Origin: Bdellovibrionota bacterium
Lineage (GTDB): Bacteria; Bdellovibrionota; Bdellovibrionia; Bdellovibrionales; JAEYZS01
Assembly (NCBI GenBank): GCA_963169805.1
Contig: CAUJDY010000052.1
Location: forward strand, 19,579 to 83,578
Direction of reading: 5' to 3'
DNA length: 64,000 nucleotides
The notes beneath the pieces were generated by a model. The model did not search any database. It saw only the letters and a program-made list of their open reading frames with translations, and was not told where the DNA came from. Positions 8,527-24,658 of the stretch are shown piece after piece (within the stretch, counting starts at the first letter, position 1; every line of letters begins with the position of its first letter). Position numbers and translations under genes: made by a program.

Positions 8527-9096
8527 ATGATCCAAAAAATGGATATTAAATCTTTAATTTCCCTAGTAAATTCAAATATTTCCGCAATCGAACACACTCA
8601 CCCCAGCACTGCGTACCAAGCCGTCAACTCAGCACTGTTAATGAGCTCAATCACAACACTTGTAGAAATGATACCCACTCTTGAAGGAAGAATTGTAAGT
8701 TTAATTTTAAGTGACAAGCCTATTTCCGATCTTCACGAGCAAATTCTAAAAAAGACGAACCATTCTTCGCACAGATATTTACAAAACATATCTTCTTCAA
8801 CTCTTAAAGTTTTTTATCACCTACATAAGCCTGAGTTTAAAGGCAGTATTGCAATACTAGAGGTTAACAATCTTATAACACTACTAGAACTTGTAAATGA
8901 GGCAACGAAATCCCAAATTGAAGTTGTCAACCATAACAACTCAAGAGGCTTTATGAACAATACTCTGTTTTTGAGTGCAGAGCCCAGTCTGCTTAAACAT
9001 TTCTTAGAAAAAAACAGTGAACGTATTTCTAAGCACCAGATAATTGAAAAACTGAGCACATCACTTTTGAGTTTTTTTAGCTTCGCTGAACCATAA
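8527..9096 (+). CDS. Hypothetical protein, 189 aa
   Basis: The ORF fills an otherwise empty interval. I recognised no motifs. It overlaps the neighbouring TPR gene convergently by 36 nt. Confidence 0.4.
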   Translation: MIQKMDIKSLISLVNSNISAIEHTHPSTAYQAVNSALLMSSITTLVEMIPTLEGRIVSLILSDKPISDLHEQILKKTNHSSHRYLQNISSSTLKVFYHLHKPEFKGSIAILEVNNLITLLELVNEATKSQIEVVNHNNSRGFMNNTLFLSAEPSLLKHFLEKNSERISKHQIIEKLSTSLLSFFSFAEP

Positions 9097-10140
9097 CGAC
9101 TGACACTTTTCTGTTTGATCCATATATTTTTTGTAAAGCTTCGGTTGTCCTAATTTATCTAAGTTATATGCATGCCTTCTCATCTCTAGTTCTGCCTCCT
9201 TAACATACGGACAAGCATTAAGAAATGACTGCAATGATTGATCATATTTTTTCAGCTGGAACTGTGCTTTTGCAAGCTCTAAAAAACAATCTCCGGCTTT
9301 TGGATTAATTATTCCACATTGACCGAAATGACTCTCCGACAACTCATAATTCTTAGCATTTTGACTTAGAAGCCCAGCTTCTCTTTGAGTCTGTTCTGAT
9401 TTTTTGAATTGCTTTGCTGCAGAGTAAAGAATTTTTCGCGCTTGATCTTCTGCTTCGGTATACTTAAATGCTAATGCAAGATTAACATGATTTTCTGCTA
9501 CATCAGGAGATTTAACAAGCGCAGATTGGCAAATATTTTTTGCACTATCAAAATACTTTTCTTTTATCTCTATTTTACACATCTCATTGAGCCACTTTGA
9601 TTTTTCACCAAATTTTTCAATTATTTCCAACAATATTAATCTTGCATCATAAGTATTTTTTTTACCAAGATAGAACTGATAAAGAGCTTCGTAGGCTTTC
9701 TCATACTTAGGCGCCTCCGAAATAGCTTGTCTGAAATTCTTGATAACTTCCTCTGTCTTGTTTATCTCTGCATACGCTTCACCTAAACGAACAAAAAAAC
9801 CAGGAGGCTGCTTCCCCATTGTTTTAATAATCTCGAGCGCACGCACCTCTTCTAGATGATCTTGTTTTTCATGAGAGATTTTTGCAATTAGCTCCAGACC
9901 ATCCACACTTTGCGGATCATTTCCAAGGCGTGCATTTTTGATTGCAGATTCATAATCTTTAATCAAAAGATAGTTCTTAGCTAGATCTAGAAAATCTTGG
10001 GGAGCCTTTTTACTTTTTGCGTCTATGTTTTTTATTCTTTGTTTAACCTGTGCGCTTGTAACAATTTTTTTTGCATATAATGAAAATCCAAGAAAGTGTG
10101 TACTCAAAATAAAAAATATCAAAAACTTCATAATTGCCAC
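9061..10140 (-). CDS. Secreted TPR-repeat protein (possible TadD-like accessory factor)
   Basis: Signal peptide without a lipobox Cys, then repeated TPR-like helices with an A/Y/L pattern. It starts 3 nt downstream of the pilin-like gene 10144..11022 and is divergent from the flp operon. Confidence 0.65.
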   Translation of the reverse strand: MAIMKFLIFFILSTHFLGFSLYAKKIVTSAQVKQRIKNIDAKSKKAPQDFLDLAKNYLLIKDYESAIKNARLGNDPQSVDGLELIAKISHEKQDHLEEVRALEIIKTMGKQPPGFFVRLGEAYAEINKTEEVIKNFRQAISEAPKYEKAYEALYQFYLGKKNTYDARLILLEIIEKFGEKSKWLNEMCKIEIKEKYFDSAKNICQSALVKSPDVAENHVNLALAFKYTEAEDQARKILYSAAKQFKKSEQTQREAGLLSQNAKNYELSESHFGQCGIINPKAGDCFLELAKAQFQLKKYDQSLQSFLNACPYVKEAELEMRRHAYNLDKLGQPKLYKKYMDQTEKCQSLWFSEAKKTQK

Positions 10141-10143
10141 CCA

Positions 10144-11022
10144 TCAATCTTTGCTTTTTTGATATTGTAGCACTTGCCCACCAAAGAAAACAACAATTGC
10201 CAAAATCATCCCAATGATCAGAATGTATCTTAAAAAATCTGGTATTGATAAACTCGTGTCATCATCTACTTTTTGTACTCTCTTTTCATCTGTGTTTGTT
10301 GGAACACGCTTGATACTTCTCAAATCTTCACCATCACCTTGAGCTCCTGATGAGGCCACAGATGGTGGAGCTCCCTCACGCTCTTCTTCTTCTGTAGAAT
10401 TGGATCTTCCATAAACAGGAACATATTCTTGCCGTCCAGAATTTTCATTAAAATCCTCTCCCGTTGCATTATTCATAAACACAGGAGGTTGATTCCCGTC
10501 AGAGGAACCAGAACTCTTACTACCACTCGATGTCACCGGAACACGAACCCCTCTTCCTGAAGCCTGGTCTCCAAAATCACCCGAGGAACCCACAGGAATG
10601 AGCGACCCACCGGCTCCTCCCTCTGCTCCAGAACCTGCTTCAAGTTCTGCAACGTTAACAGGAGTAGAACCCCCTCCCTCGGAACCATCACTCCCGCCCG
10701 CAAAACCTTCATCTAAAATTGGAGGTCGTCCTTCCTCAATTGTAAAAGGCTGAAATTCGGATTCACACTCAGATGCATCCGCTCCACCCGTATCGCCACC
10801 CAAGCGCGGAAGCTCTCCTGTTTCAAGTAAACACTGAAAATATGCTCCAAAATAATTATTAACAAAACGACGCGTTCCATCTGCAAGGCCAAAAAGTAAA
10901 CCACCCAATACAATCACTACAACAAAGAGCAACAGCACGTATTCGAGTACAGCCTGCCCTCGTTGATGTATGTTACTAACATAGTGGTTTCTCATTATTT
11001 TCTCATCGTCATTCATACTCAT
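10144..11022 (-). CDS. Prepilin-like protein with G/S/E-rich disordered region and C-terminal TM anchor
   Basis: Flp/TadE-type class III signal: HQRG/QAVLEYVLLLFVVVIVLGG. This is followed by about 200 aa of low-complexity G/S/D/E sequence. The C-terminal hydrophobic helix is FLRYILIIGMILAIVVFFGG, followed by a basic tail. Confidence 0.6.
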   Translation of the reverse strand: MSMNDDEKIMRNHYVSNIHQRGQAVLEYVLLLFVVVIVLGGLLFGLADGTRRFVNNYFGAYFQCLLETGELPRLGGDTGGADASECESEFQPFTIEEGRPPILDEGFAGGSDGSEGGGSTPVNVAELEAGSGAEGGAGGSLIPVGSSGDFGDQASGRGVRVPVTSSGSKSSGSSDGNQPPVFMNNATGEDFNENSGRQEYVPVYGRSNSTEEEEREGAPPSVASSGAQGDGEDLRSIKRVPTNTDEKRVQKVDDDTSLSIPDFLRYILIIGMILAIVVFFGGQVLQYQKSKD

Positions 11023-11132: not shown

Positions 11133-11209
11133 AATTCTCATTTAAGAACGCACCCACTAAAACCGATAAAGAGTTGATAAACACCAAAAGAAAAAAAGGG
11201 GGAAACATC

Positions 11210-11395
11210 ATGAAAAAACTCAAGAATTTTGCAAAACGCTTTTGCAAAGACGAATCTGCTCAGGGGGCTACTGAGTATATTCTTCTTCTAGTGGTTGTTG
11301 TTGGCTTAATTATGGTTTTTAAAGATCCAATCAAGAGAATGGTCTCTGATAAGTTGGGTCAACTACAAAATCAAATCCAACAAGTGAATCCATAA
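11210..11395 (+). CDS. flp: Flp-family pilin (61 aa)
   Basis: The leader and motif FCKDESAQG/ATEYILLLVVVVGLIMVF closely resemble Caulobacter PilA FLKDESG/ATAIEYGLI. A GGGGGA RBS lies 5 nt upstream of ATG 11210. The track ORF from TTG 11174 is probably an over-extension. Confidence 0.85.
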   Translation: MKKLKNFAKRFCKDESAQGATEYILLLVVVVGLIMVFKDPIKRMVSDKLGQLQNQIQQVNP

Positions 11396-11404
11396 GGTTA
11401 GCGT

Positions 11405-11602
11405 ATGACGACGGAGTTGGCGCTGCTTCTTACAATTTTTATGTTTGTCGTTATTGGAGTCTTTAAAACTCCAACGAAAACATTTGAAGAGGCAGGACCG
11501 CGACTTGGCCTGAGATTAGAAAAACAAATGGAAACTGGCACGGGGTTTAACAAGAAATCTTTTAATACCCCCAAGCCAATTACATGGGGACCAAAAAACT
11601 AA
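11405..11602 (+). CDS. Small leaderless pilin-like hydrophobic-N-terminus protein (65 aa)
   Basis: It begins MTTELALLLTIFMFVVIGVF. An in-frame TAG immediately upstream excludes a longer leader. It sits between flp and the prepilin peptidase gene. Confidence 0.45.
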   Translation: MTTELALLLTIFMFVVIGVFKTPTKTFEEAGPRLGLRLEKQMETGTGFNKKSFNTPKPITWGPKN

Positions 11603-12099
11603 TGTTTGGAACTATTTTACTACCAAGTATTATACTAGCGGTGTCTGCATTTGAAGACATTCGCACGAAGAGAGTAACAAATAAACTTCTTCTAAGTTTA
11701 TTTGCGGTAGTTTTTATTGTTCAGTTATTAGTTTTAAAGCAGTTTGAGTTTGCTGAAAGTATATCTGGAGTCGTAACTGCCTTTCTTCTTCTCTCTCCTC
11801 TATTTTTATTAAAAGCTTTAGGGGCAGCAGACATCAAAGTATTTATGCTTCTTGGTTTTTTAACAGGGCCTTACCAAATTTTGAATATCTTTATATTTAG
11901 CCTTGTATGTGCCGTTATATTTGGCTTTGCAATAGTAGTACAAAAAAAAGGATCTGCTGTTTTTTTCCAAAACATAAAAAATATTTTAACATTCAAAAAA
12001 GACCAGGTTTCAAATCTACAACATATACCGTTTACTGTAGCGCTTTTGGCAGGATGGATATGCTACTTGGTCTACCAATACCATGGGAGGATTATATGA
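11584..12099 (+). CDS. tadV: Flp prepilin peptidase (A24 aspartic peptidase, CpaA/TadV type)
   Basis: Polytopic membrane protein with two catalytic-Asp contexts, FEDIRTKRV and GAADIKVF. An alternative ATG at 11602 would give a TAATG junction with the upstream ORF. Confidence 0.85.
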   Translation: MGTKKLMFGTILLPSIILAVSAFEDIRTKRVTNKLLLSLFAVVFIVQLLVLKQFEFAESISGVVTAFLLLSPLFLLKALGAADIKVFMLLGFLTGPYQILNIFIFSLVCAVIFGFAIVVQKKGSAVFFQNIKNILTFKKDQVSNLQHIPFTVALLAGWICYLVYQYHGRII

Positions 12100-12362
12100 A
12101 TAAAAATCCAACCGTGACAAATAATCAAAAAGGTCAAGTCGCTGTAGAATATATTCTTCTAACAGTAGTTATGGCAGGACTAGCCATCGCTGCGCATAAT
12201 TATATATCAAGCACAAATATGCTAGGTGGATACGTACAAAAACCCTGGCAATTAATATCTAGTATGATTGAGACAGGTGTTTGGGGTGAAGCTCGAGTGG
12301 CTAGGACCCAACACCCAGGCAAACTCTATAGACATTTATCACTTGAGGGAGAGCCAGAATGA
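12096..12362 (+). CDS. Flp/TadE-type prepilin-like protein (88 aa)
   Basis: NQKG/QVAVEYILLTVVMAGLAIA has the canonical G/xxxxEY motif. GGGAGG RBS. ATGA overlap with the tadV stop. The track ORF from 11907 is an upstream extension running inside tadV. Confidence 0.7.
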   Translation: MNKNPTVTNNQKGQVAVEYILLTVVMAGLAIAAHNYISSTNMLGGYVQKPWQLISSMIETGVWGEARVARTQHPGKLYRHLSLEGEPE

Positions 12363-12928
12363 ATTCAAATGGAGGCATAACCCTTGATTTTATTTTTGCA
12401 CTTGTACTGGTACTATCTATGACCTTACTTCTAGGAGTTTTTAGTTTTTCATTAGCAATAATAGAAAGCACTCAGTATATAGCTTACTCCGCATCACGTG
12501 CATATTTTCCTGCTCATATTAATGAGGAGACTCAAAAACGCATGGCTGATGAAAAATTTGAAGAGTTAACAAAATCAAGTGGTTTCAAATCATTTTTAAA
12601 ACCAGACTTATTCAAAATATCTGTGGATCGTATTGGGGATACTGGGGATATCTATCAACGGGCAACAACTAAAGATATTCTAGATGGAGTTAGGCTAAAA
12701 ATTATCTTAGAGATACTTGATATTCAACTACCCGGCCTAGGTACTACTCAAGGGCAACCCTACGAGACTTTTGTTACATCTCTGCTAGGAAGAGAATCAA
12801 CATCTGAAGAATGTCAAAATTTTATGCAACAGCGATTCAATGCTCTACTAAATGTTCCAGGTTCCACATACTCGTCTTCATCAATTCAACCAGAGCAGTA
12901 CTTTGCTTTCGAAGATAACGGATGTTGA
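12359..12928 (+). CDS. TadE/TadF-like pseudopilin candidate (189 aa)
   Basis: N-terminus NGG/ITLDFIFALVLVLSMTLLLG is a pilin-like hydrophobic helix with Asp in place of Glu. ATGA overlap with the upstream gene. Confidence 0.5.
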   Translation: MNSNGGITLDFIFALVLVLSMTLLLGVFSFSLAIIESTQYIAYSASRAYFPAHINEETQKRMADEKFEELTKSSGFKSFLKPDLFKISVDRIGDTGDIYQRATTKDILDGVRLKIILEILDIQLPGLGTTQGQPYETFVTSLLGRESTSEECQNFMQQRFNALLNVPGSTYSSSSIQPEQYFAFEDNGC

Positions 12929-12929
12929 T

Positions 12930-13412
12930 ATGAAAAAAACGAATATTAGAAAAATTATTGAAAATGAAAAGGGAATAGCAACAATGGAGTCAGCTTTGCT
13001 TCTGACAATCTTTGTTGTATTTATGACTTATTGTATTGGTTTCTTTGGCGTAGTTCACTCTGGAATATTAAATTCTATTTCTGCTAGGGCCTACACATTT
13101 GAAACATTTAGAAACAGATCTAATCTAACCTACTTCAGAGATGAATTAGGTACTCAATCATTACACTATAACAAATATGGATTTCGTGCTCATGGAATTA
13201 TATCTGAAAAATCACCTGTTGGGGCAACTGATGGCCAATGGTACGTCACAGAACGAACTATAGCTCAAGGGAAAGAATCTCCTACCGTAACTAACAGAAG
13301 AAATCCAAATCAATTAGATCAAGCATTAAGACGCGAAACAGAAGGCGCCAATCCTGTATGGATTAAAACAACATATGGAATCTGTTTAAATCAAACCTGT
13401 GGGGATGGTTAA
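12930..13412 (+). CDS. TadE-like pseudopilin candidate (160 aa)
   Basis: EKG/IATMESALLLTIFVVF places Glu at +5. The ATG lies 1 nt after the upstream stop. The track ORF from 12852 is an extension. Confidence 0.6.
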   Translation: MKKTNIRKIIENEKGIATMESALLLTIFVVFMTYCIGFFGVVHSGILNSISARAYTFETFRNRSNLTYFRDELGTQSLHYNKYGFRAHGIISEKSPVGATDGQWYVTERTIAQGKESPTVTNRRNPNQLDQALRRETEGANPVWIKTTYGICLNQTCGDG

Positions 13413-13413
13413 T

Positions 13414-14304
13414 ATGAACCAAAATCAAACACGCACATTATGGATATCAATAGGACTTGGTATTTTTTCAATGATTCTAATCTACAGCTATTCGCAAGAG
13501 AAAAAAGCGGAGTACGATAAAAGATATGGTACTTCAAAAAGAATTTTGATTGCAGCCAAAGATATTTTAGAAATGCAAACGATTGATGAAACGATGATTG
13601 AATTTGCAGAAGTTCCTCAGGAGTTTGCCCAACCTGGATCCATAACAGAGCCAGATTTGGTTATTAATCGTGTTGCAGCTACACCTTTTAAAAAAGGCGA
13701 ACAGATATTAAACACCAAAGTACTAAGCCTTGGAGCAAACACTGGACTTTCAAATCAAGTAGCACCAGGAAAAAGAGCTATTTCAATTCCTATTGACGAA
13801 GCCAGAGGTGTGTCAAAACTCGTTCAACCAGGTGATCGAATTGATATTCTTTCAAGCATAGAAGTTGGTAAAGGAATTAATAAAGATTTAGAGGTTAAAA
13901 CAATACTTCAAGATGTGGTTGTTCTAGCTACAGGTTTAAAAATTACAAATAATATTCCAAGAGTTCGAGAAAAAGCAGGATTTTCCAATGAGGAGTTCTT
14001 TAGAAATTTAAATGGAGATACAAGCTTTTCGACAGTTACAATTGAAGTGGATCCTCAAGAAGCACAAAGTTTAGTCTATATAATGGCGACTTCTCCTGGA
14101 AGTTTATTTTTCTCTCTTAGAAATCCAAATGATCGAATCAAAAATACTATTCCAACATCTACAGTAAATTCTGTTTTAGGGAGAGCATCCATACCACAGT
14201 TTACTGCTCCAGCACCGCAACCTGTGGTTCAAAAGCCAGCTCCACTCCCGGTTAAACGTGTCCCTGCAAGCACTCGCAGAGGACCATTCATAGAGGTGAA
14301 ATAA
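13414..14304 (+). CDS. cpaB: Flp pilus assembly protein CpaB/RcpC
   Basis: N-terminal TM, a SAF-like segment (ILIAAKDILEMQTIDETMI) and the RcpC-type GKRAISIPIDEARGVSKLVQPGDRIDIL. The start could also be 13399 or 13405. Confidence 0.85.
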   Translation: MNQNQTRTLWISIGLGIFSMILIYSYSQEKKAEYDKRYGTSKRILIAAKDILEMQTIDETMIEFAEVPQEFAQPGSITEPDLVINRVAATPFKKGEQILNTKVLSLGANTGLSNQVAPGKRAISIPIDEARGVSKLVQPGDRIDILSSIEVGKGINKDLEVKTILQDVVVLATGLKITNNIPRVREKAGFSNEEFFRNLNGDTSFSTVTIEVDPQEAQSLVYIMATSPGSLFFSLRNPNDRIKNTIPTSTVNSVLGRASIPQFTAPAPQPVVQKPAPLPVKRVPASTRRGPFIEVK

Positions 14305-15773
14305 TGAAAACACTCCTCATACTCTTTATTGTAATACTTTTACCCTCAATTGGGTTAGCCCAAGATAATAAAAGTGCTACAAAGAAATTTTTGAATTTAA
14401 CCGTTGGACTTTCCACTGACGAAAAGCTGCCGTTTTTGCCTGATGACCCTCAGTTTACAGGAGACTTTAAAAAAATCACAAAACTCTCTGTAGCAAAAGA
14501 CATGAAAATTCTTAGATTTGATCCAACAGCTGAGGGAGTTGGCACATTAAACGTACTAGATAATCGCGGAAGAAAAGTGGCAGAGTACGTTATAACAATT
14601 AAAAAGAGTAAGCTAGAAAATGTTGTGCGTGAAATGAGAGCTCTTCTTGGAGAAATAGAGGGAATCTCAATTAAAATTATCAACAATAAAGTTGTTGTTG
14701 ACGGAGAAATCTTACTTCCAAAGGATATGAACCGTATTATGAGCGTTGTTAGTCAATACGGAGACCAAGCAGCGACCATAGTCACTTTGAGTCCAATTGC
14801 ACAAAAGAAGATCGCAGAAATTATTGAAAAAGATATCAATAATCCTGAAATTACCGTGAGAGCAGTTAATGGTAAATTTATTTTGGAAGGACTCGCGGGA
14901 TCAAAAGAAGAAAAAGACAGAGCAGAAATTATAGCAAAAACATATGTCCCAGACTATGTTGTTGGTGCAGCAGAAAAAACTGGCGACATTAAGGTACAAC
15001 GATCTCTTCCTGTCTTAAACTTGATTGAATTAAAACCAGCAGGAGAAGCTCCTCCAAAAAAAATCGTACAGCTTGTTGTTCATTATGTTGAGCTACAAAA
15101 AGACTACACGCGTGGATTTAGATTTCAATTCACACCTACACTAGAAGATCAAACCAAAATTGACTTCCAAAGTGGAAGCAGATCACCCTCTGGTTTTATT
15201 ACTTCCATTACTGGTATAGTTTCAAACTTACTTCCCAAGCTGAATTGGGCTAAGGAGCACGGGCACGCAAGAATTCTGCAAACATCCTCTGTTATTGTTC
15301 TAGAGGGACAGGCTGGAAAAATCCAATCCGTTACAAAAGTTCCTTACCAAACGACTGGTGCGCAAGGGCAAATTCAAACTAGTTTTGAAGATGCAGGTAT
15401 CATTACAGATATTACACCTACAATTCCCAATCCGAATTCAGATAGTATAAATTTATCAGTTAGCTTTAAATTAAAAAGCTTGATCGGACAGACAGAAAGC
15501 GGCCCACTCATTTCTGACAACTCAATTCAGACGGCAGTAACAGTTCGCTCATCTCAAAGCGCAGCAATTGGTGGATTAGTTTCTAATTCGAGTGGAACTG
15601 ATTATAATAAATTACCTAAGGGTACTTCTGATAATCCGCTCATCTCTCTCTATTCCTCTAAATTCTTCAGAAGAAATCAGTCGCAGTTCGTTGTTTTTAT
15701 TACGCCAATTATTAAAAATTCAGCTTCTGCAGGCTCTGAAAAAATTAAAGCCAAATTTCGATTAAGAGAGTAA
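14304..15773 (+). CDS. cpaC: Tad secretin CpaC/RcpA
   Basis: Signal peptide, N-terminal BON/N-domain-like region and a C-terminal secretin domain (ARILQTSSVIVLEGQAGKIQSV...VVFITPIIK). Its ATG overlaps the cpaB stop. Confidence 0.9.
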   Translation: MKTLLILFIVILLPSIGLAQDNKSATKKFLNLTVGLSTDEKLPFLPDDPQFTGDFKKITKLSVAKDMKILRFDPTAEGVGTLNVLDNRGRKVAEYVITIKKSKLENVVREMRALLGEIEGISIKIINNKVVVDGEILLPKDMNRIMSVVSQYGDQAATIVTLSPIAQKKIAEIIEKDINNPEITVRAVNGKFILEGLAGSKEEKDRAEIIAKTYVPDYVVGAAEKTGDIKVQRSLPVLNLIELKPAGEAPPKKIVQLVVHYVELQKDYTRGFRFQFTPTLEDQTKIDFQSGSRSPSGFITSITGIVSNLLPKLNWAKEHGHARILQTSSVIVLEGQAGKIQSVTKVPYQTTGAQGQIQTSFEDAGIITDITPTIPNPNSDSINLSVSFKLKSLIGQTESGPLISDNSIQTAVTVRSSQSAAIGGLVSNSSGTDYNKLPKGTSDNPLISLYSSKFFRRNQSQFVVFITPIIKNSASAGSEKIKAKFRLRE

Positions 15774-15776
15774 AAA

Positions 15777-17942
15777 ATGACACAAGGTTCGTACATCATT
15801 TCTATAATAGGAGGAAAGGGCGGAGTTGGGAAATCTGTCTTTGCTGCCAATTTTGCATTGGCAACTCTTAAAGAAATGAAGAGCCGCGTGCTCCTTATGG
15901 ATCTAGACGGTGAATCGTGTGGAGATCAAAATGTCATTCTGGGTGTAAGACCCTTAAAGACCATAGGTGAATTAGCTCAGTCTAATATACAAATTAGTAT
16001 GCAGACAGTTGGTACACTGGTTACAAAGCATAGCTCTGGTCTTGGATATATCGGAGCTGTAAAATCCCCATCAGAACAACTTTCTCTTGCGCCTGAGCTT
16101 ATAGATTCTCCACTTAATCAACTCAGCACTGTCTTTCCATATATAATTTGCGATCTTGGCTGTCACTTAGGTGATTTACAAATGAAGATCTTAGAGAAAA
16201 GTACCTGTATCATTCTAGTGACAACTCCTGAGGTTTTGGCAATTAATCAATCTCTTAAAATGATGAATCAGTTGATTGCTACAACTTTACCTACAGATGT
16301 TTTTCAAATTGTTCTTAATAAAGTTACAAATCAGTCTTTGAATCCACAAATGATTGCGCAAACTTTCAAAAAACAACCTCTTGGTATGATCCCGCAGGAC
16401 GATAATTCTTCATATGCGGCTCTTCAAGCTGGCAATCCAGTTGTTACCATGCAGCCACAATCTCAAATTGCTCAAGCTTATCATGATCTAGCAAGAAGAA
16501 TTACTTCTCCTGCCCTTTTACAAAAACTTGCAAGCCTTTCAAAACCAACAAACTTGGCTAATCCTTTTCAGCAGAATAGCAATGCTGGAAATAAAAATAT
16601 TGTAAGCAAACCCGGCAGCATTGATCGAAAATCTAATCCTAGAAATATTTTTAAAGAGCAAGTTCACAGAGAGCTTATTGAGGCAATGAATCTTCGAAAA
16701 GGTATCACTGAAACAAAGGGTGATCCTGAAAAAGAAAAACAACTGCAAATAAAAACTCAGCAAGCAATTTCTCAGATTGTAGACAAACTTCAGCCAGGAA
16801 TGGCTAGAGATGAGCGATCTCAAATAATGAAAGAAGTTTTAGATGAGGCGCTTGGATTAGGACCTCTAGAAAATTTACTAGATGACGACTCTGTAACAGA
16901 AATTATGGTTAATGGCTTTGATAAAATATTTGTTGAAAGAAGCGGTCGAATACAACTCAGTCCAATCACATTTACCTCTAATGTGCATCTTCGAAATGTC
17001 ATTGAGAGAATCGTAACCCCACTTGGTAGACGCATAGACGAAAAGACTCCTTATGTCGATGCACGATTAAAAGATGGAAGCCGTGTGAATGCTGTTGTCG
17101 AACCAATTGCCATTGATGGGCCGTCATTAACTATTCGAAAGTTTGCTAAAAAACCTGTTACTACTGATAATTATATTCAGTGGGGCTCTCTAACTGAACC
17201 GATGATTGATTTTCTAAGAATCTGCGTAGAAAACGGACTAAATGTCGTTATTTCTGGAGGCACCGGATCTGGTAAAACAACTTTACTTAATGTTATGTCG
17301 AGCTTCATCCCCGCAACTGAAAGAATTGTAACCGTTGAAGATGCTGCTGAGTTGCAATTAAAGCAAGAACATGTCGTCAGATTAGAAACCCGGCCAGCCA
17401 ATATGGAAGGAACTGGGTCTATAACAATTCGCGACCTCGTTAGAAATTCATTACGCATGAGACCGGATCGAATTGTGGTGGGAGAATGTCGAGGAGGCGA
17501 AGCACTTGATATGCTATCTGCAATGAATACCGGCCACGACGGATCTATGACAACTGTTCACGCCAATTCTCCGCGCGAAGCAATTGGAAGACTAGAAACA
17601 TTATGTCTTATGGCAGGGATGGATCTACCTGCTAAGGCAATACGCGAGCAGATTTCAGGTGCTGTTGATTTAATAATTCAGATTTCAAGACTGTCTGATG
17701 GCAGTAGAAAAGTGCTTAGCATCACTGAAGTTGCAGGCATGCAAGGCGAAACCATAACTCTCCAAGAAATTTTTAGATTTAAAGAGGAGGGCTTCGATAA
17801 AAATAGAAAAATCATTGGACAATTTCTAGCATCTGGCTTGATTCCTACCTTTATCGAAGAGTTTGAGCGAAAGGGTATTAAAATTCCAAGAACACTTTTC
17901 TCAAATGACAACAACCTCAAAAAAGTCTCTGGAGGTCGTTAA
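15777..17942 (+). CDS. Fusion protein: TadZ/CpaE-like MinD/ParA ATPase domain + TadA/CpaF secretion ATPase
   Basis: Residues 12-20 are GGKGGVGKS, a deviant Walker A of MinD/CpaE type. Residues ~250-295 are a low-complexity linker. Residues ~295-721 are a complete CpaF: GLGPLENLLDD, Walker A GGTGSGKT at 494-501, RPDRIVVGECRG, GHDGSMTTVHAN. Confidence 0.9.
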   Translation: MTQGSYIISIIGGKGGVGKSVFAANFALATLKEMKSRVLLMDLDGESCGDQNVILGVRPLKTIGELAQSNIQISMQTVGTLVTKHSSGLGYIGAVKSPSEQLSLAPELIDSPLNQLSTVFPYIICDLGCHLGDLQMKILEKSTCIILVTTPEVLAINQSLKMMNQLIATTLPTDVFQIVLNKVTNQSLNPQMIAQTFKKQPLGMIPQDDNSSYAALQAGNPVVTMQPQSQIAQAYHDLARRITSPALLQKLASLSKPTNLANPFQQNSNAGNKNIVSKPGSIDRKSNPRNIFKEQVHRELIEAMNLRKGITETKGDPEKEKQLQIKTQQAISQIVDKLQPGMARDERSQIMKEVLDEALGLGPLENLLDDDSVTEIMVNGFDKIFVERSGRIQLSPITFTSNVHLRNVIERIVTPLGRRIDEKTPYVDARLKDGSRVNAVVEPIAIDGPSLTIRKFAKKPVTTDNYIQWGSLTEPMIDFLRICVENGLNVVISGGTGSGKTTLLNVMSSFIPATERIVTVEDAAELQLKQEHVVRLETRPANMEGTGSITIRDLVRNSLRMRPDRIVVGECRGGEALDMLSAMNTGHDGSMTTVHANSPREAIGRLETLCLMAGMDLPAKAIREQISGAVDLIIQISRLSDGSRKVLSITEVAGMQGETITLQEIFRFKEEGFDKNRKIIGQFLASGLIPTFIEEFERKGIKIPRTLFSNDNNLKKVSGGR

Positions 17943-18817
17943 TGTCAATTTTTGCTAATGAACTCGTATTTACAATTCTCTTTGGACTTTGTATATTTGG
18001 AATTTCTTATTTTCAATCTGAAAAAGTAATTGATTGGCTGAGGCAAAAAAGCTTAGGAAGTCGTGAATACGTTATTCAAAAATTAGAACTCATGTTTGTC
18101 GATGTAGATCATAAAAAACTAACAGCAACTATGCTACTTTTAAGTCTTGGTATAGGTTTTCTAGTTTTTTTATTAGTTTGGCCAAACTTAATAGTAGGAT
18201 TTATACTTGGATCCATAGTTACGTACTTTGGATGGCAGGCTCCTAAGTTTCTTGTAGACTATCTCTTTGAAAAGCGATCTGACTTACTTGTAAATCAAAT
18301 GGTTGACGGTTTAACAATCATGTCAAACGGAATTCGTTCTGGCCTAAGTGTTACTCAATCTATGGAAAGAGTTGTAGATAATATGCCAAACCCTATTCGC
18401 CAAGAATTTGGTCTAGTCTTATCACAAATTAAACTCGGCTTAAGTATAGAAGAAGCTCTTTCAAATTTGGGAAATAGGATCCCAGCTCCTGATATTCAAA
18501 TGTTTGTTACAGCAATTAACATACTAAAGGAAACTGGCGGAAACTTAGGAGAAACTTTTGCAACGATGGTTGAAACCATACGGGAAAGACAGAAGATTCA
18601 TAAAAAAATAGAAGCTCTAACCGCTCAGGGCGTAACTCAGGGAATTATTATTACATGTATCCCTTTTGTCCTAATGCTTGTTTTCTTTTTTGTTGATCCT
18701 GGTTTTATCAAACCCTTATTTACAACAACACTTGGAATCATACTTTTATTTGTGATGCTTTCTTTACAGATTATCGGTGGTCTGATGATTCGAAAAATTG
18801 TTAAGATTAAAGTCTAG
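17942..18817 (+). CDS. tadB: Tad platform protein (T2SS-F domain, TadB/TadC family); single copy
   Basis: 291-aa polytopic protein with one GspF-like cytoplasmic domain (GLSVTQSMERV...PIRQEFGLVLSQIKLGLSIEEAL). TAATG overlap with the ATPase gene. No second paralogue follows. Confidence 0.85.
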   Translation: MSIFANELVFTILFGLCIFGISYFQSEKVIDWLRQKSLGSREYVIQKLELMFVDVDHKKLTATMLLLSLGIGFLVFLLVWPNLIVGFILGSIVTYFGWQAPKFLVDYLFEKRSDLLVNQMVDGLTIMSNGIRSGLSVTQSMERVVDNMPNPIRQEFGLVLSQIKLGLSIEEALSNLGNRIPAPDIQMFVTAINILKETGGNLGETFATMVETIRERQKIHKKIEALTAQGVTQGIIITCIPFVLMLVFFFVDPGFIKPLFTTTLGIILLFVMLSLQIIGGLMIRKIVKIKV

Positions 18818-18903
18818 TCAAGAGATGCGTAATTTTCTCCTCATAATCTCCATTTTCTTATAAAATAAACGAAAGATATCAATCACCTCAAAGATGGAGT
18901 TTT

Positions 18904-20547
18904 GTGATGAAATTGGTCATGAGTGTTCAACTCAGTCTTCTCGCTTTTATAGGAATCTATTCTCTCCCAGCCACTGCCCTTGTAGATATGCAAGGCGCAA
19001 ACTTTACAGAAACATTTGTTGATATGGAAATACCTGACAGTGGTTATAATCTAAGAGTCGAAAGAGCATATAATAGCAGAACTTTGTTTAATGGAATTTT
19101 TGGCTTTGGAATGTGTTCCAATTTTGAAACAAAACTTGAAATCTTGGCAGATGGAAGGCTCAAACGAATTGAATGTGGATCAGGTCAGGAAATCGATTTT
19201 ATTCCAAGAACTTTTTCTGACAAAGACGTTCAATCTGGGATCAAAAAAATAATGTCTGCACTTAAAAAAGAAAATCCAAAAATGACAGCTACTCAATCTA
19301 AGGCTATCGAAAAGAGATTAACAGATGACCCTCTTTACAGAGATGAACAAAATATAAAGTTTGGAATTGAAAAGGCAATTAAAGAAGACACTGTATTTTA
19401 CTCTGTATCTAACTCAACTGATAAAATTGTATTTAAAAAAACACATTATCAAAGAGACTTAGAAGATGGCACCTCTGAGCGATTTGATCTGCAGGGTCGA
19501 ATTTCCTTTATGTATGATAAGAATAAAAACTTTATTAAATTTGACTACGATGGAAACAAGCTAATCTCCGTAACGAGTGCATCTGGAAATAAGCTTACAC
19601 TTTCTTACTACCAAACAGGTAAAGTAAAGGAAATCAGAGGGCCTCGCGGTCTGTCTTCAATTTATAAATATGATAAAATTAACGATTTATCGTATGTTAT
19701 GACAGCCGCTAAAGAAGAATATGAGTATAAGTACGATGCTCTCCACAATGTGGTAGAAATCACATACCCAGACAAGACAAAGAAAAAACTTGGATATAAT
19801 CAAGATAAAGACTGGGTTACAAGCCTCACAGATAGAAACGGCTGCACTGAAACATATAACTATGAGCTTTCCAAGACAGATCCTAAAAACAACTTCTTTT
19901 CCTCTGTAGAAAAAAAATGTGAAGGAAAAGTTGTTAATAAAAGTCGTTACGGATTTTGGTTTAAAGATAGGAAGAATAAAAGCAGTAGCTTTCTATCAAA
20001 ACTTACAATTGATATTAATGGAGTAAAATCAGAAATTGAATATCATGATGTTTTTGAAAAACCATTACGTATTAAAAGACAAAATGAACTCACAGTTTAC
20101 GATTACTTTGCAAACGGATTACTTAAGTCAAAAAAAGTAGGAAAATCCCTCATTACCTATACATATAACAAACAAAACCGTGTATCTGAGGTTCGTGATG
20201 GCAAGAAGTTTACAAAGTTTACTTATGATCCTAAGGGAAATCTAACTTATGCAGAAAACTCAGAAGGACAAAAAGTGCAATTAAACTACGATACTCGAGG
20301 AAGAATTGTTAAGTTGATAGATCAAGCTAAGCGACTTATTAATATTGAATATGATGATAAAGTCGGAAAACCTAGCATAGTAGAAAGGCCCGGCGTCGGA
20401 ACAATCTTTGTAACTTATGATTCAAGCGGAACGGTTCAGAAAGTTAGATCTAAGGATAATGATCCCACCGTTGCAGTCCAGGTTGCCTCAGCATTTAATA
20501 ACCTTATAGAAATTGTAACTCCAGCAGGAGTTCAGGTAGGCATATAA
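18904..20547 (+). CDS. Secreted YD/RHS-repeat protein (547 aa)
   Basis: Signal peptide. RHS-type N-terminal block LRVERAYNSRTLFNGIFGFGMCSNFE. Many YD repeats (YDGNKLISV, YKYDALHNVVEITYPD, YTYNKQNRVSEV, FTYDPKGNLTY, LNYDTRGRIVK). No recognisable C-terminal toxin or cleavage motif. Confidence 0.85.
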   Translation: MMKLVMSVQLSLLAFIGIYSLPATALVDMQGANFTETFVDMEIPDSGYNLRVERAYNSRTLFNGIFGFGMCSNFETKLEILADGRLKRIECGSGQEIDFIPRTFSDKDVQSGIKKIMSALKKENPKMTATQSKAIEKRLTDDPLYRDEQNIKFGIEKAIKEDTVFYSVSNSTDKIVFKKTHYQRDLEDGTSERFDLQGRISFMYDKNKNFIKFDYDGNKLISVTSASGNKLTLSYYQTGKVKEIRGPRGLSSIYKYDKINDLSYVMTAAKEEYEYKYDALHNVVEITYPDKTKKKLGYNQDKDWVTSLTDRNGCTETYNYELSKTDPKNNFFSSVEKKCEGKVVNKSRYGFWFKDRKNKSSSFLSKLTIDINGVKSEIEYHDVFEKPLRIKRQNELTVYDYFANGLLKSKKVGKSLITYTYNKQNRVSEVRDGKKFTKFTYDPKGNLTYAENSEGQKVQLNYDTRGRIVKLIDQAKRLINIEYDDKVGKPSIVERPGVGTIFVTYDSSGTVQKVRSKDNDPTVAVQVASAFNNLIEIVTPAGVQVGI

Positions 20548-20756
20548 TGGTCATATTATTCACTTTTTTTGTTAGTTTTTTGGCTGCTCAAAATCAAACT
20601 CAAGCAACAGAGGCTGCTGTAAGCACGAGTTGCGATGAATATATCCCTGGGGTTATTTGTACTCAAAAATACCAGTCACGCACCCGTCTATCTGATGAAG
20701 CTCCCAAGCCAAGTACTTCCGTTACACCCCCAGCAGCTTCTGCAGGGTCGAACTAA
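20547..20756 (+). CDS. Small secreted Cys-pair / Pro-Ser-Ala-rich protein (69 aa)
   Basis: Its start overlaps the YD-protein stop (TAATG). Hydrophobic N-terminus MVILFTFFVSFLAAQ. Two Cys residues (SCDEYIPGVIC). The tail looks disordered: APKPSTSVTPPAASAGSN. Confidence 0.5.
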   Translation: MVILFTFFVSFLAAQNQTQATEAAVSTSCDEYIPGVICTQKYQSRTRLSDEAPKPSTSVTPPAASAGSN

Positions 20757-20897
20757 AAGCGGTAGACGGCCGTCAACAAGCTAGACAATCTCATTCTGAG
20801 ACAAACTTGTAAGCACTTGAAATCACTAAGCTTTTATAAACAGATCCCCCGGCAAAGATGGCATACCCTCTGCAATGTATAGTCGTAGAGGTGTACT

Positions 20898-21059
20898 ATG
20901 AAATACGTAATGCTTGCTATATTATCTGTTCTTTATATGAGTTCAGTAGCATATGGGAATGCGGATTGCCCTAACAAGGGAAAGCTTAGTGCTTTTTCAT
21001 CAAAGGGACAGCTAACCCCACAAGATCCGATATTAACTACAAGTGACGGACGCAGATAA
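20898..21059 (+). CDS. Candidate small secreted peptide (53 aa), below the ORF-track cutoff
   Basis: I translated this myself: MKYVMLAILSVLYMSSVAYG/NADCPNKGKLSAFSSKGQLTPQDPILTTSDGRR. AGAGG RBS about 6 nt upstream. It competes with the antisense track ORF 20933..21160. Confidence 0.35.
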   Translation: MKYVMLAILSVLYMSSVAYGNADCPNKGKLSAFSSKGQLTPQDPILTTSDGRR

Positions 21060-21071
21060 TTTTCTGCGTTC

Positions 21072-21422
21072 TTACTCCATTTCGTAATCTTGATTCTCTT
21101 GAGCTTGGCTTTTGAGCTCTTGTTCTTTTTCGTACTTTTGACTTCTTTTGACTTTAACAATGTCTCGCTTACCAGGTGAATTATCAGATCTAAATTTTTG
21201 TGTTATCAAAGAATCAAATGTTTTGATTGCACCTTTATATGTAGATCTAAAAAGCGCCGCCCCACCTTGTGCAACTTCATTTAAAGGTTCCAATATACTG
21301 GATGTTTTCAAAAAAAAGTGTGTATGATTTTCTACAGTCTCTTCCCCTATTTTAATTTGCATAATTAACACAACCAGTACAGTTGCTATAAACACTTTCA
21401 GAACAAATCCAAGATGACTCAT
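21072..21422 (-). CDS. Membrane-anchored hypothetical protein (116 aa)
   Basis: N-terminal TM helix FVLKVFIATVLVVLIM and a charged K/E/Q tail. Its start ATG overlaps the stop codon of the upstream response-regulator gene by 1 nt. Confidence 0.5.
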   Translation of the reverse strand: MSHLGFVLKVFIATVLVVLIMQIKIGEETVENHTHFFLKTSSILEPLNEVAQGGAALFRSTYKGAIKTFDSLITQKFRSDNSPGKRDIVKVKRSQKYEKEQELKSQAQENQDYEME

Positions 21423-21796
21423 TATTGCCCCCTTTTTTCTAAACTCGTTTTAATCGTATGAATTAAATTTTCAATTTTGAATGGCTTCTCTACAAAATCA
21501 ACGCAACCAGCATCTAGAGCTTTAACAACCATCGACTCACTTCCTTCTGTTGAACACGCGATGATTAAGCTGGTAGGTTTAACTTTTAATATCTCCTGCG
21601 TTGCTTGAATTCCACTTTTAATAGGCATCACGATGTCCATCAAAATGACATCAAAATCATTTTCCAAGGCAATTTTTGTAGCCTCTTCTCCATTTTGTGC
21701 CTCTGCGGCCACCACAAAGCCATGCCGTGAAAGTATTTGCGTTAACACTTCCCGAACAAATGCTGCATCATCAACAATCAGTACTTTCTTTGACAT
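21422..21796 (-). CDS. Single-domain CheY-like response regulator
   Basis: Receiver motifs VLIVDDA, phospho-acceptor ILMDIVMP, and KALDAGCVDFVEKPF. ATG at 21796 with an AGGGA RBS is preferred over the GTG at 21826. Confidence 0.85.
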   Translation of the reverse strand: MSKKVLIVDDAAFVREVLTQILSRHGFVVAAEAQNGEEATKIALENDFDVILMDIVMPIKSGIQATQEILKVKPTSLIIACSTEGSESMVVKALDAGCVDFVEKPFKIENLIHTIKTSLEKRGQ

Positions 21797-21885
21797 TTCA
21801 TCCCTACAAACGTAAAAACCTTTCACTTCCGATTATATTATTGCTGACCCTGAAAACCCAAACAGTTATATTCAAATCTCGACGT

Positions 21886-22518
21886 ATGGAACAAACAACC
21901 TCATTTGCATATAAAATTATTAACTTCTTTATGACAGTCAGTGGCTTTGAAGCTTATGCACTCATTTTGGGAGTTCTATTTATATGCGGTATGGGTGTTC
22001 CTATTCCAGAAGACATTACACTTATTTCTGCTGGCCTACTTGCTGGACAAGGCAAAATATCTTTTGAGGGCGCAATGATTGCCGGACTCATTGGAGTGAT
22101 GATAGGTGACACCATTTTGTTTATGATAGGACAAAAGTATGGGAGAGCTGTTTTCAATTGGCCAGTTTTTAATAAAATATTTACTCCTGCACGTATTACC
22201 AAAGCTGAGCTTCAGATTCAAACGCATGCGCGCAAAATATGTTTTGCTGCGCGATTTATGCCTGGACTTAGAGCTGCAATATTTTTAACAGCCGGAATCA
22301 TGAAAGTACCTTTTAGAACATTCTTCTTTCAAGATGGAGTTGCTGCACTTATTAGTGTTCCCGTATGGATTTATCTGGGCTATTGGTTTTCTGATAAGAT
22401 AGATCAGGTCATAGAATTAGCTAAAGATATCAACATTATCATTGGCGTTATTATTGTTTCCGCTGTTCTAGGCTTTATTTACTATAATCGTAAAAAAAAA
22501 CTTAGACATTCGTCTTAG
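21886..22518 (+). CDS. DedA-family (VTT/SNARE-associated) membrane protein
   Basis: DedA signature: GVPIPEDITLISAGLLAG...GDTILFMIGQKYGR...FAARFMPGLRAAIFLTAG. The track ORF from 21697 is an extension antisense to the response-regulator gene. Confidence 0.85.
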   Translation: MEQTTSFAYKIINFFMTVSGFEAYALILGVLFICGMGVPIPEDITLISAGLLAGQGKISFEGAMIAGLIGVMIGDTILFMIGQKYGRAVFNWPVFNKIFTPARITKAELQIQTHARKICFAARFMPGLRAAIFLTAGIMKVPFRTFFFQDGVAALISVPVWIYLGYWFSDKIDQVIELAKDINIIIGVIIVSAVLGFIYYNRKKKLRHSS

Positions 22519-24171: not shown

Positions 24172-24510
24172 TTACCTTCTACGATCATAGTTATAGTTTC
24201 TACCGTACATCAAATGTTCCACAGTACTAAGTTTTTCAGCTAAATAATCAACTCTACTTTGTAGAACTAGAATGGCATTTCGGTGTCGAGATAATGTTCG
24301 TTCAACTCGATCTAAAATACGACGATCCCGTTCATCATAAAATTCTCCGCGGAATCCTTTTTCTTGAATATCGTCTAACCGATCCCAACTCGACATATTT
24401 GGCTCACTTCTCAAAGCAAACTTCTGTGCTTCTGCACTTGCTTGACCAAAGCTTGCGATAGAGAACAATAGCCCCAGTCCAACAATTGAATGAATAACTA
24501 GCTTATACAT
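24172..24510 (-). CDS. Small secreted hypothetical protein (112 aa)
   Basis: Signal peptide ending FGQASA, then a charged helical region. No motif recognised. Confidence 0.45.
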   Translation of the reverse strand: MYKLVIHSIVGLGLLFSIASFGQASAEAQKFALRSEPNMSSWDRLDDIQEKGFRGEFYDERDRRILDRVERTLSRHRNAILVLQSRVDYLAEKLSTVEHLMYGRNYNYDRRR

Positions 24511-24658
24511 AATAAACCCCTTTGTGTTTTTCCTCTCCCCTTAGAGCTGTCGGGTTCTGCATAGAGCAATGCTCATGCCATAAACATATTTGGCTCAAAT
24601 GAATTTAAACACTAGTTGGTTTATAACTTGGTATCAGAAGGTCATCAGAAAAATTTTT

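Follow-up and report, generated by a model that had tools for sequence, protein, structure and literature searches.

The 64,000-nucleotide stretch analysed here (the window; contig CAUJDY010000052.1, positions 19,579 to 83,578, of assembly GCA_963169805.1 from a Bdellovibrionota bacterium) contains a complete plus-strand Tad/Flp pilus operon (~11174 to 18817), which is closed by a gene for a YD-repeat protein and followed by a 69-amino acid (aa) open reading frame (ORF). The interval probably represents the distal end of a hit (host-interaction) locus in an uncultured member of the Bdellovibrionales with a GC content of ~37-38%. The combination of a Tad pilus operon with a Bd0109-type YD protein and a small secreted disordered protein has been published before, and the locus adds a further example of it rather than a new kind of system. 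The features at its distal end are as follows.

18907..20547, plus strand: secreted YD-repeat protein of the Bd0109 family (ORF opens with GTG at 18904), DUF6531 and RHS_repeat domains, 43.5% identity to Bd0109
20547..20756, plus strand: 69-aa putative secreted protein, small and predicted to be largely disordered, with a Cys loop, in the position of Bd0108 (hit), ATG overlapping the YD stop codon
20859..20874, plus strand: sigma-54-type -24/-12 element TGGCATACCCTCTGCA, 39 nucleotides (nt) upstream of the second small ORF
20898..21059, plus strand: second small, putatively secreted ORF, 53 aa, predicted signal peptide and a single Cys, gene-called in independent assemblies
21101..21129, plus strand: terminator-like hairpin and T-run after the second small ORF, overlapping the 3' end of a convergent gene

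The YD ORF (18904..20547) encodes 547 aa when read from its GTG; the ATG at 18907 (546 aa) is the likelier start, because a GGAG (18896-18899) lies 7 nt upstream and a 546-aa protein is called in other assemblies of the same sequence. The gene begins 86 nt (GTG) or 89 nt (ATG) past the T2SSF platform gene, which, apart from the likelier ATG, agrees with a first, sequence-only reading of the window that had placed a 547-aa signal-peptide YD/RHS protein 86 nt after this gene. The protein contains Pfam DUF6531 (residues 33-98) and RHS_repeat domains, the NCBIfam model YD_repeat_2x and 11 Y[DE] dipeptides, and its predicted signal peptide ends with PATA↓LVDM, the same type of site as in Bd0109 (AFA↓LV). 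It shares 43.5% identity with Bd0109 of Bdellovibrio bacteriovorus over residues 11-545 (tblastn, E 1e-156), and in the reverse search Bd0109 of strain YOA24 gave a single match in the window (18934..20538). Together with the conserved gene order described below, this identifies the YD protein as the orthologue and syntenic counterpart of Bd0109, the relationship on which the sequence-only reading had staked its interpretation.

Across B. bacteriovorus strains YOA24, s4 and Bd16, YD identity is 42-44% over residues 11-545 (E ~1e-150), and the best matches among GTDB representatives are metagenome-assembled genomes (MAGs) of uncultured Bdellovibrionales (58-61% identity). A scan of the GTDB species-representative genomes with the YD protein retrieved 80 loci, and a search of 5.8 billion proteins retrieved ~120 relatives that share this architecture and are 503-574 aa long (E 0 to 1e-87, 312-1105 bits). 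As the next RHS protein scores 69 bits, the Bd0109-type proteins form a discrete family. Several of its members carry the name 'cell wall-associated protein wapA [Bdellovibrio sp.]', and Bd0109 has been described as a homologue of the wall-associated protein WapA (PMC3818213; the name 'wapA' also in PMC3526173).

An AlphaFold model of the YD protein (27 homologues, predicted local distance difference test (pLDDT) 84) consists of an N-terminal beta domain, a helical insert, a YD spiral of ~34 strands (residues 164-516) and a terminal helix. Foldseek matched this model to Rhs cores of type VI secretion systems (T6SS; 8qja_A, template modelling (TM) score 0.63, E 3e-22), profile matches to Rhs cores were obtained at E ~1e-25, and no structure of the Bd0109 family was found in the PDB by sequence. 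The predicted beta-spiral fold is thus shared with the YD shells of Rhs proteins, Tc toxins and teneurins (PDB 8qja, 4igl), and this match, the RHS/YD repeats and a small ORF directly downstream are what a classical Rhs/YD polymorphic toxin with its immunity gene would show. However, the YD protein is about half as long as these shells (Rhs cores are roughly twice as long as the model), and it contains neither autoproteolytic motifs nor an encapsulated C-terminal toxin. A DPxG[LWF] cleavage motif (the DPxGL aspartyl-protease motif of Rhs toxins) was not found by motif search and a C-terminal extra domain was not found with Pfam, in agreement with the sequence-only reading, which had reported no recognisable toxin or RHS cleavage motif. 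Furthermore, the protein has a predicted Sec signal peptide and is tied to a Tad pilus operon, a T6SS or PAAR/VgrG context is absent, and the small ORF, with its signal-peptide-like N-terminus and predicted disorder, is unlike cytoplasmic immunity proteins. On motif and domain grounds we therefore reject a toxin/immunity pair, which is effectively refuted and has hardly any probability left. The Sec-exported YD protein would instead form a beta-spiral shell of about half the Rhs-core length that carries no protease or toxin.

On the two sides of the YD gene, the order of 14 flanking genes matches that of the B. bacteriovorus hit locus (tblastn, YOA24 and s4 loci). The shared order comprises Flp, a second pilin, pseudopilins, CpaB, secretin, a CpaE-TadA fusion, TadB, the YD gene and the small ORFs, and continues beyond these with a membrane protein (minus strand), CheY (minus strand), a 531-aa protein and GroEL (minus strand). 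Individual genes were compared by tblastn with the B. bacteriovorus loci L016 and L027. The hit locus of strain HD100 likewise has the Flp-to-TadB order followed by YD, a small secreted ORF, a second small ORF, a membrane protein and CheY; its YD protein is 43.5% identical over the full length, and the cleavage context A-x-A↓LVDM is common to both. This collinearity and the presence of a small ORF in the Bd0108 slot (offset 0 from the YD gene in the window, +16 nt in L016) bear out the proposal of the sequence-only reading that the interval is the positional equivalent of the hit locus. The window additionally contains a TadV peptidase and a VTT/DedA gene, neither of which had a tblastn match in the B. 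bacteriovorus loci examined.

The ATG of the 69-aa ORF shares one base with the TAA stop codon of the YD gene (TAATG), and a Shine-Dalgarno-like AGGTAGG is located 6 nt upstream. The encoded protein has a hydrophobic N-terminus, the cysteines Cys29 and Cys38 (C29-x8-C38, CDEYIPGVIC) and a P/S/A/T-rich tail; the overlap, the hydrophobic N-terminus, the Cys pair and the Pro/Ser/Ala-rich tail had all been described correctly from the sequence. Residues 2-14 are hydrophobic and predicted to be helical, with TQA↓TE as a plausible cleavage site and no basic n-region, and the small ORFs of the relatives L001-L004 carry canonical MK...AFA/AQA signal peptides. AlphaFold2 predicted a helix at residues 2-15 only and pLDDT values of 42-51 for the rest, in a model that rests on a shallow alignment of three sequences and serves as a proxy for disorder. 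The predicted mature protein is thereby compatible with intrinsic disorder, which fits the disordered look that its tail had been credited with.

A frame of 69 codons is by itself not significant in DNA of 37% GC, and ORFs of similar size occur by chance elsewhere in the window. Pfam and NCBIfam contain no family matching the 69-aa or the 53-aa ORF (Pfam has nothing for Bd0108 either), and the tail of the 69-aa ORF evolves neutrally, as would be expected of an open frame that arose by chance or of non-coding spacer DNA. Nevertheless, we regard the ORF as a real gene, because its position and frame are kept in 82/82 related loci and because its head shows a proportion of nonsynonymous differences (pN) of 0.107 versus a proportion of synonymous differences (pS) of 0.519. 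These 82 loci are those with enough downstream sequence, and the assignment is dubious in three of them (L030, L041, L069). All have an ORF with a hydrophobic N-terminus near the YD stop codon, in almost all at -16 to +32 nt; most of the ORFs in this slot contain a Cys pair, and low-complexity tails are common. The pair is a CXXC in most loci and C-x8-9-C in the window clade. In a lineage with 35% YD identity, a signal-peptide ORF of 83 aa that contains two Cys is located 30 nt past the YD gene.

The conservation of the 69-aa ORF in sister genomes, on which the sequence-only reading had made its case depend, is evident in the metagenomic contigs L081 (YD 90% identical) and L082-85 (78%), which encode a 69- or 70-aa ORF with the same stop/start overlap (offset 0). 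In the comparison of the window with L081, the above pN of 0.107 and pS of 0.519 apply to the first 52 codons, and the last 17 codons have a pN of 0.60 and a pS of 0.70; the ratio of nonsynonymous to synonymous substitution rates (dN/dS) of the YD and TadB genes, given for comparison, is ~0.03. The N-terminal two thirds are hence under purifying selection, while the tail drifts with its frame and length kept. Across the relatives, the ORF retains a length of 68-70 codons, its frame and its start overlap despite synonymous sites near saturation (pS 0.52-0.71), with a pN of 0.11-0.24 in the head. M1, C29, G35 and C38 are invariant in an alignment of eight sequences, and the window clade conserves C-[DE]-x3-4-G-x2-3-C. 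With the AGGTAGG upstream and gene calls in independent assemblies, this leaves a chance frame or spacer as a highly improbable explanation.

The canonical Bd0108 of B. bacteriovorus YOA24 is a 101-aa protein (ASA↓DE, C56/C59, RRHDDTVSREVKGS). The 69-aa protein resembles Bd0108 of HD100 in its signal peptide-like N-terminus, its single Cys pair and its predicted disordered S/T/P/G-rich tail (Capeness 2013 PMC3818213, Prehna 2014 PMC4267844). It differs in length (69 versus 101 aa), in Cys spacing (C-x8-C versus CXXC) and in the absence of an NPGEDPNEA-type segment. The start of the small ORF also differs, being located 13 to 17 nt past the YD stop codon in Bdellovibrio and overlapping it in the window. 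The sequence-only reading had proposed the ORF as a candidate, sequence-divergent life-cycle switch protein; tblastn gives homology to Bd0108 no support, and a weak profile alignment (hhalign E 0.027, probability 1.8%) speaks for it.

Several lines of evidence point towards homology. With alignments trimmed of the signal peptide, hhalign of mature profiles of the window clade against all Bd0108-like ORFs gave an E value of 0.069 (reversed controls 0.5-0.6), and against the clean Bdellovibrio subgroup an E value of 0.027, a score reached by 4/150 column shuffles (empirical p ~0.03). The alignment pairs QKYQSRTRLSDE with IAYR..KGSRRHDD of Bd0108, the start of the region of the 42-bp deletion in HD100. 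The motif C-x6-9-[RK][LMIV]xD, as defined on Bdellovibrio, occurs in the window ORF (shuffle frequency 0.003), C-x8-RLSD being common to both proteins; it is present in 20/82 ORFs only and absent from the nearest outgroup of the window. Iterative phmmer/hmmsearch searches were conducted against the 8,118 ORFs collected from all loci, 7,671 of them outside the array of small ORFs. Seeded with the window ORF, they recruited the L001-4 ORFs, then second and third array ORFs, then Bdellovibrio-type ORFs, and reached canonical Bd0108 at round 8; the off-array recruits among the 7,671 numbered 8, all of them small Cys-containing signal-peptide ORFs.

Other results weigh against the identification of the 69-aa protein as a Bd0108 equivalent with the same role. 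Neither the 69-aa nor the 53-aa ORF matched the B. bacteriovorus loci by tblastn, the profile-profile probability is just 1.8%, and the Bd0108-seeded search took up 56 first-position ORFs and never the window clade. In large databases, word-indexed and full HMMER profile searches with the 69-aa ORF retrieved its own narrow clade only, with 3-4 close relatives. The 69-aa ORF has C-x8-C in place of a CXXC motif, its putative signal peptide has no basic n-region, and neither this ORF nor the rest of its clade contains the NPGEDPNEA-type segment (Bd0108 residues 32-40), the N-terminal region to which Bd0109 binding has been mapped (Prehna 2014 PMC4267844). Direct repeats of at least 8 nt are also absent from the 69-aa ORF, so that the repeats underlying the 42-bp hit deletion have no counterpart here. 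Furthermore, nothing indicates that this uncultured lineage is predatory or has host-independent variants, and many host-independent mutants of B. bacteriovorus map outside the hit locus (PMC11323537).

The lack of BLAST similarity, the low profile-profile probability, the one-sided iterative searches, the different Cys spacing, the missing N-terminal motif and the narrow set of database relatives would also be accounted for by non-orthologous replacement, in which the YD protein is the Bd0109 orthologue and the 69-aa ORF an unrelated small secreted gene in the slot, with any role different from that of Bd0108. However, the window-seeded search does reach Bd0108 with just 8 similar off-array recruits, C-x8-RLSD is found in both proteins, and repeated independent replacement is unparsimonious because an ORF of the same type fills the slot in 82/82 loci. 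We thus consider replacement unlikely. The homology of the 69-aa ORF to Bd0108 is suggestive rather than proven from these sequence comparisons, and common descent with extreme divergence is probable.

The second small ORF (20898..21059), which the sequence-only reading had passed over together with the promoter-like element at 20859..20874 and the conserved genes on the far side, should correspond by position to BD_RS00505 of HD100 (gene order from PMC5941755). In 49/54 loci, which range from the window clade to B. bacteriovorus (L016 and L027 included), a TGGCAY-N7-GCW element is located 39-84 nt before the ATG of the second ORF; the chance expectation is 0.008 per intergenic region. Between the window and L081 the element is kept and the rest of the spacer has diverged. 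It fits the GG-N10-GC pattern and resembles TGGCAC-N5-TTGCW, making it a putative RpoN promoter, and no earlier report of a sigma-54-type element before the second small ORF was found in the literature searched. The only other match to this pattern in the 64 kb of the window (24565..24580, minus strand) lies ~55 nt upstream of a 112-aa ORF (24172..24510, minus strand) between groEL and the 531-aa gene; this ORF has a signal-peptide-like N-terminus and a charged C-terminal part. A promoter/terminator scan found no terminator after the 69-aa ORF. The hairpin at 21101..21129 is weak and matches the consensus only, with site counts equal to the expectation from shuffled sequence.

When the first and second small ORFs were compared within each locus, 5/51 loci reached p<0.01 against shuffles (L002, L022, L048, L019, L042), as exemplified by L002 (ORF1 ...GLFASTNPP, ORF2 ...SRFASSNPA); no such signal was detectable within the window itself. 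The enrichment of low p-values would be consistent with tandem paralogy of the two ORFs, as previously proposed for the short genes of Bacteriovorax marinus SJ (Crossman 2013 PMC3526173). In L082 (~11792..11950, minus strand) and likewise in L083-L085, a homologue of the second ORF (MKYFMLVLFSGLYMSSIAYGKDC...) directly follows the first ORF on the opposite strand, which indicates a local inversion in this clade (YD 78% identical); the sigma-54-type motif was not found downstream of ORF1 on the plus strand, the strand scanned in these loci.

We tentatively suggest, as an idea with slightly less than even chances, that the two small proteins, the one of Bd0108 type and the one encoded by the second ORF, may be tandem paralogues that evolve rapidly and belong to a single superfamily of small, secreted and disordered proteins with Cys residues. 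In the Bdellovibrionota, this superfamily would be found next to almost all YD proteins of the Bd0109 type, with one copy coupled in translation to the YD gene and the other under the control of a conserved sigma-54 promoter. If this were true, the published view that many predators 'lack Bd0108' would be an artefact of assigning orthology by sequence, and the hit module would serve throughout the phylum as a signalling device with two inputs (operon plus RpoN).

In B. bacteriovorus, Bd0108 and Bd0109 both carry Sec signal peptides, are proposed to act in the periplasm and show weak mutual binding; Bd0108, an intrinsically disordered protein whose CXXC is oxidised, has been proposed to be enclosed by the YD shell (PMC3818213, PMC4267844, PMC11323537). 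Mutations in bd0108 alter pilus extrusion and retraction and permit prey-independent growth (PMC3818213, PMC4267844, PMC11323537). As the same pair is found in the same context, the most likely function of the genes in the window is a periplasmic module of a YD shell and a disordered peptide that modulates the Tad (and possibly also the type IVa) pilus. The translationally coupled gene would give rise to a mature disordered peptide of ~49 residues with one Cys-x8-Cys loop, and the tight translational linkage would favour matched synthesis of the YD protein and the peptide. If the two proteins behave as in B. bacteriovorus, the peptide would weakly bind the YD protein in the periplasm, and this binding would tune pilus extrusion and retraction and thereby the decision between attack and growth. 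Secretion, YD binding and any life-cycle role of the 69-aa peptide are inferred, and a function as a life-cycle switch in particular would be purely an extrapolation from B. bacteriovorus.

Comparable layouts have been published for several relatives. Bacteriovorax (Halobacteriovorax) marinus SJ has a conserved hit locus with two short hit-like genes, BMS0183/0184 (Crossman 2013 PMC3526173); BMS_0182 is 35% identical to Bd0109, and its two small signal-peptide neighbours have no significant homology to Bd0108 (Prehna 2014 PMC4267844). Like the window, this strain represents the AT-rich Bdellovibrio and like organisms (BALOs; 36.75% GC, PMC3526173) and encodes a Bd0109 homologue followed by two short proteins that begin with signal peptides or, in the window, signal-peptide-like N-termini and have little or no similarity to Bd0108. 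Its small proteins are both ~67 aa, whereas the window ORFs encode 69 and 53 aa, and the YD protein of the window is nearer to Bdellovibrio (43%) than BMS_0182 is to Bd0109 (35%). An origin of the window from strain SJ itself was rejected, as its best matches among species-representative genomes are the uncultured Bdellovibrionales MAGs (58-61% identity), with Bdellovibrio at 42-44%. B. exovorus has two Bd0109 homologues, and its genes A11Q_2207/2208 were noted by Prehna 2014 (PMC4267844). Furthermore, a 2023 wastewater metagenome study lists 20 Bdellovibrionales bins in which 2-3 short signal-peptide genes adjoin Bd0109/Bd0103 homologues (PMC10469934). As far as the accessible part of that study goes, these genes (57-133 aa) resemble the window arrangement in lying beside a Bd0109 homologue and in their marginal similarity to Bd0108, and a stop/start overlap, a Cys-loop motif, a selection analysis and a sigma-54 promoter go unmentioned there.

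Since the same layout is known from earlier publications on Bacteriovorax marinus, B. exovorus and MAGs of Bdellovibrionales from wastewater (PMC3526173, PMC4267844, PMC10469934), its novelty is low. The added value is modest and lies in the observation that the slot after the YD gene is always occupied. The Bd0109/Bd0108 pairing is extended to another uncultured Bdellovibrionales lineage, in which the small partner has kept its place although its sequence is unrecognisable. This is of relevance for the comparative genomics of predatory bacteria, where several strains have been said to 'lack Bd0108' on the basis of sequence orthology and a missing BLAST match to Bd0108 has been taken to mean that the switch is missing (PMC11870529, PMC5941755). 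The Cys loop, which is conserved and followed by an [RK]LxD[DE] segment, and the putative sigma-54 promoter in front of the second small gene provide concrete hypotheses that are testable in the tractable B. bacteriovorus.

The remaining genes of the Tad/Flp operon and of the far side of the locus are as follows.

11174..11395, plus strand: Flp-type pilin, Pfam Flp1_like (E 4.5e-11), 58% identity to B. bacteriovorus L016
11405..11602, plus strand: second small pilin-like gene, 65 aa, 46% identity to the collinear L016 ORF
11584..12099, plus strand: TadV-like prepilin peptidase, Pfam Peptidase_A24 (E 3.5e-16)
~12096..12362, 12359..12928 and ~12930..13412, plus strand: three TadE/TadF-like pseudopilins, Class III signal peptide match (E 2.7e-4)
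13399..14304, plus strand: CpaB/RcpC, Pfam RcpC (E 7e-22) and SAF
14304..15773, plus strand: secretin (CpaC/RcpA), Pfam Secretin (E 3.6e-23) and BON
15777..17942, plus strand: fusion of a CpaE/TadZ-like ParA with a TadA/CpaF ATPase, 721 aa, Pfam CbiA/ParA (residues 6-245) and T2SSE (359-645)
17942..18817, plus strand: TadB/C-type platform protein, 291 aa, Pfam T2SSF (E 1.1e-19), 57% identity to L016
21072..21422, minus strand: 116-aa membrane protein, 37% identity, collinear in L016 and L027, Bd0103 position by gene order only
21422..21826, minus strand: CheY-like single-domain response regulator, NCBIfam CheY-type, 35% identity, collinear in L016 and L027

The Flp-type pilin ORF opens at a TTG, and an internal ATG (MKKLKNF...) is its likely start. 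Pfam scans gave no match for the second pilin-like gene or the 116-aa membrane protein, and tblastn of the TadV peptidase gave none in B. bacteriovorus L016 and L027. The pseudopilin region (12096..13412) has collinear matches of 32-43% identity in L016, and the corresponding gene calls in L082 are 84, 187 and 155 aa. The CpaE-TadA fusion, which matches the TadA model TIGR03819 (E 3.5e-102), is also encoded by B. bacteriovorus L027 (738 aa), and as in B. bacteriovorus the operon has only one TadB/C-type platform gene. The CheY-like gene occupies the Bd0102 position, an assignment made by gene order only. It is adjoined by a VTT/DedA-family gene (21697..22518), which is also present in the related MAG L004 and had no tblastn match in the examined B. 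bacteriovorus loci. An Rfam scan found no RNA families across the whole window.

Upstream of Flp, Bdellovibrio loci encode a small secreted Cys-rich protein of ~101 aa (...KPYNGKNPTE...; L027 1969..2274, L032 2045..2353), which a Bd0108-seeded profile picks up in late iterations. The window has no equivalent of this protein at that place and instead contains a 292-aa ORF (10144..11022, minus strand) divergent from Flp, with two hydrophobic segments, a long G/S/E/D-rich low-complexity middle and no match in Pfam and NCBIfam. The next gene on the same strand (9061..10140) encodes a TPR protein with weak TadD/PilW-like matches.

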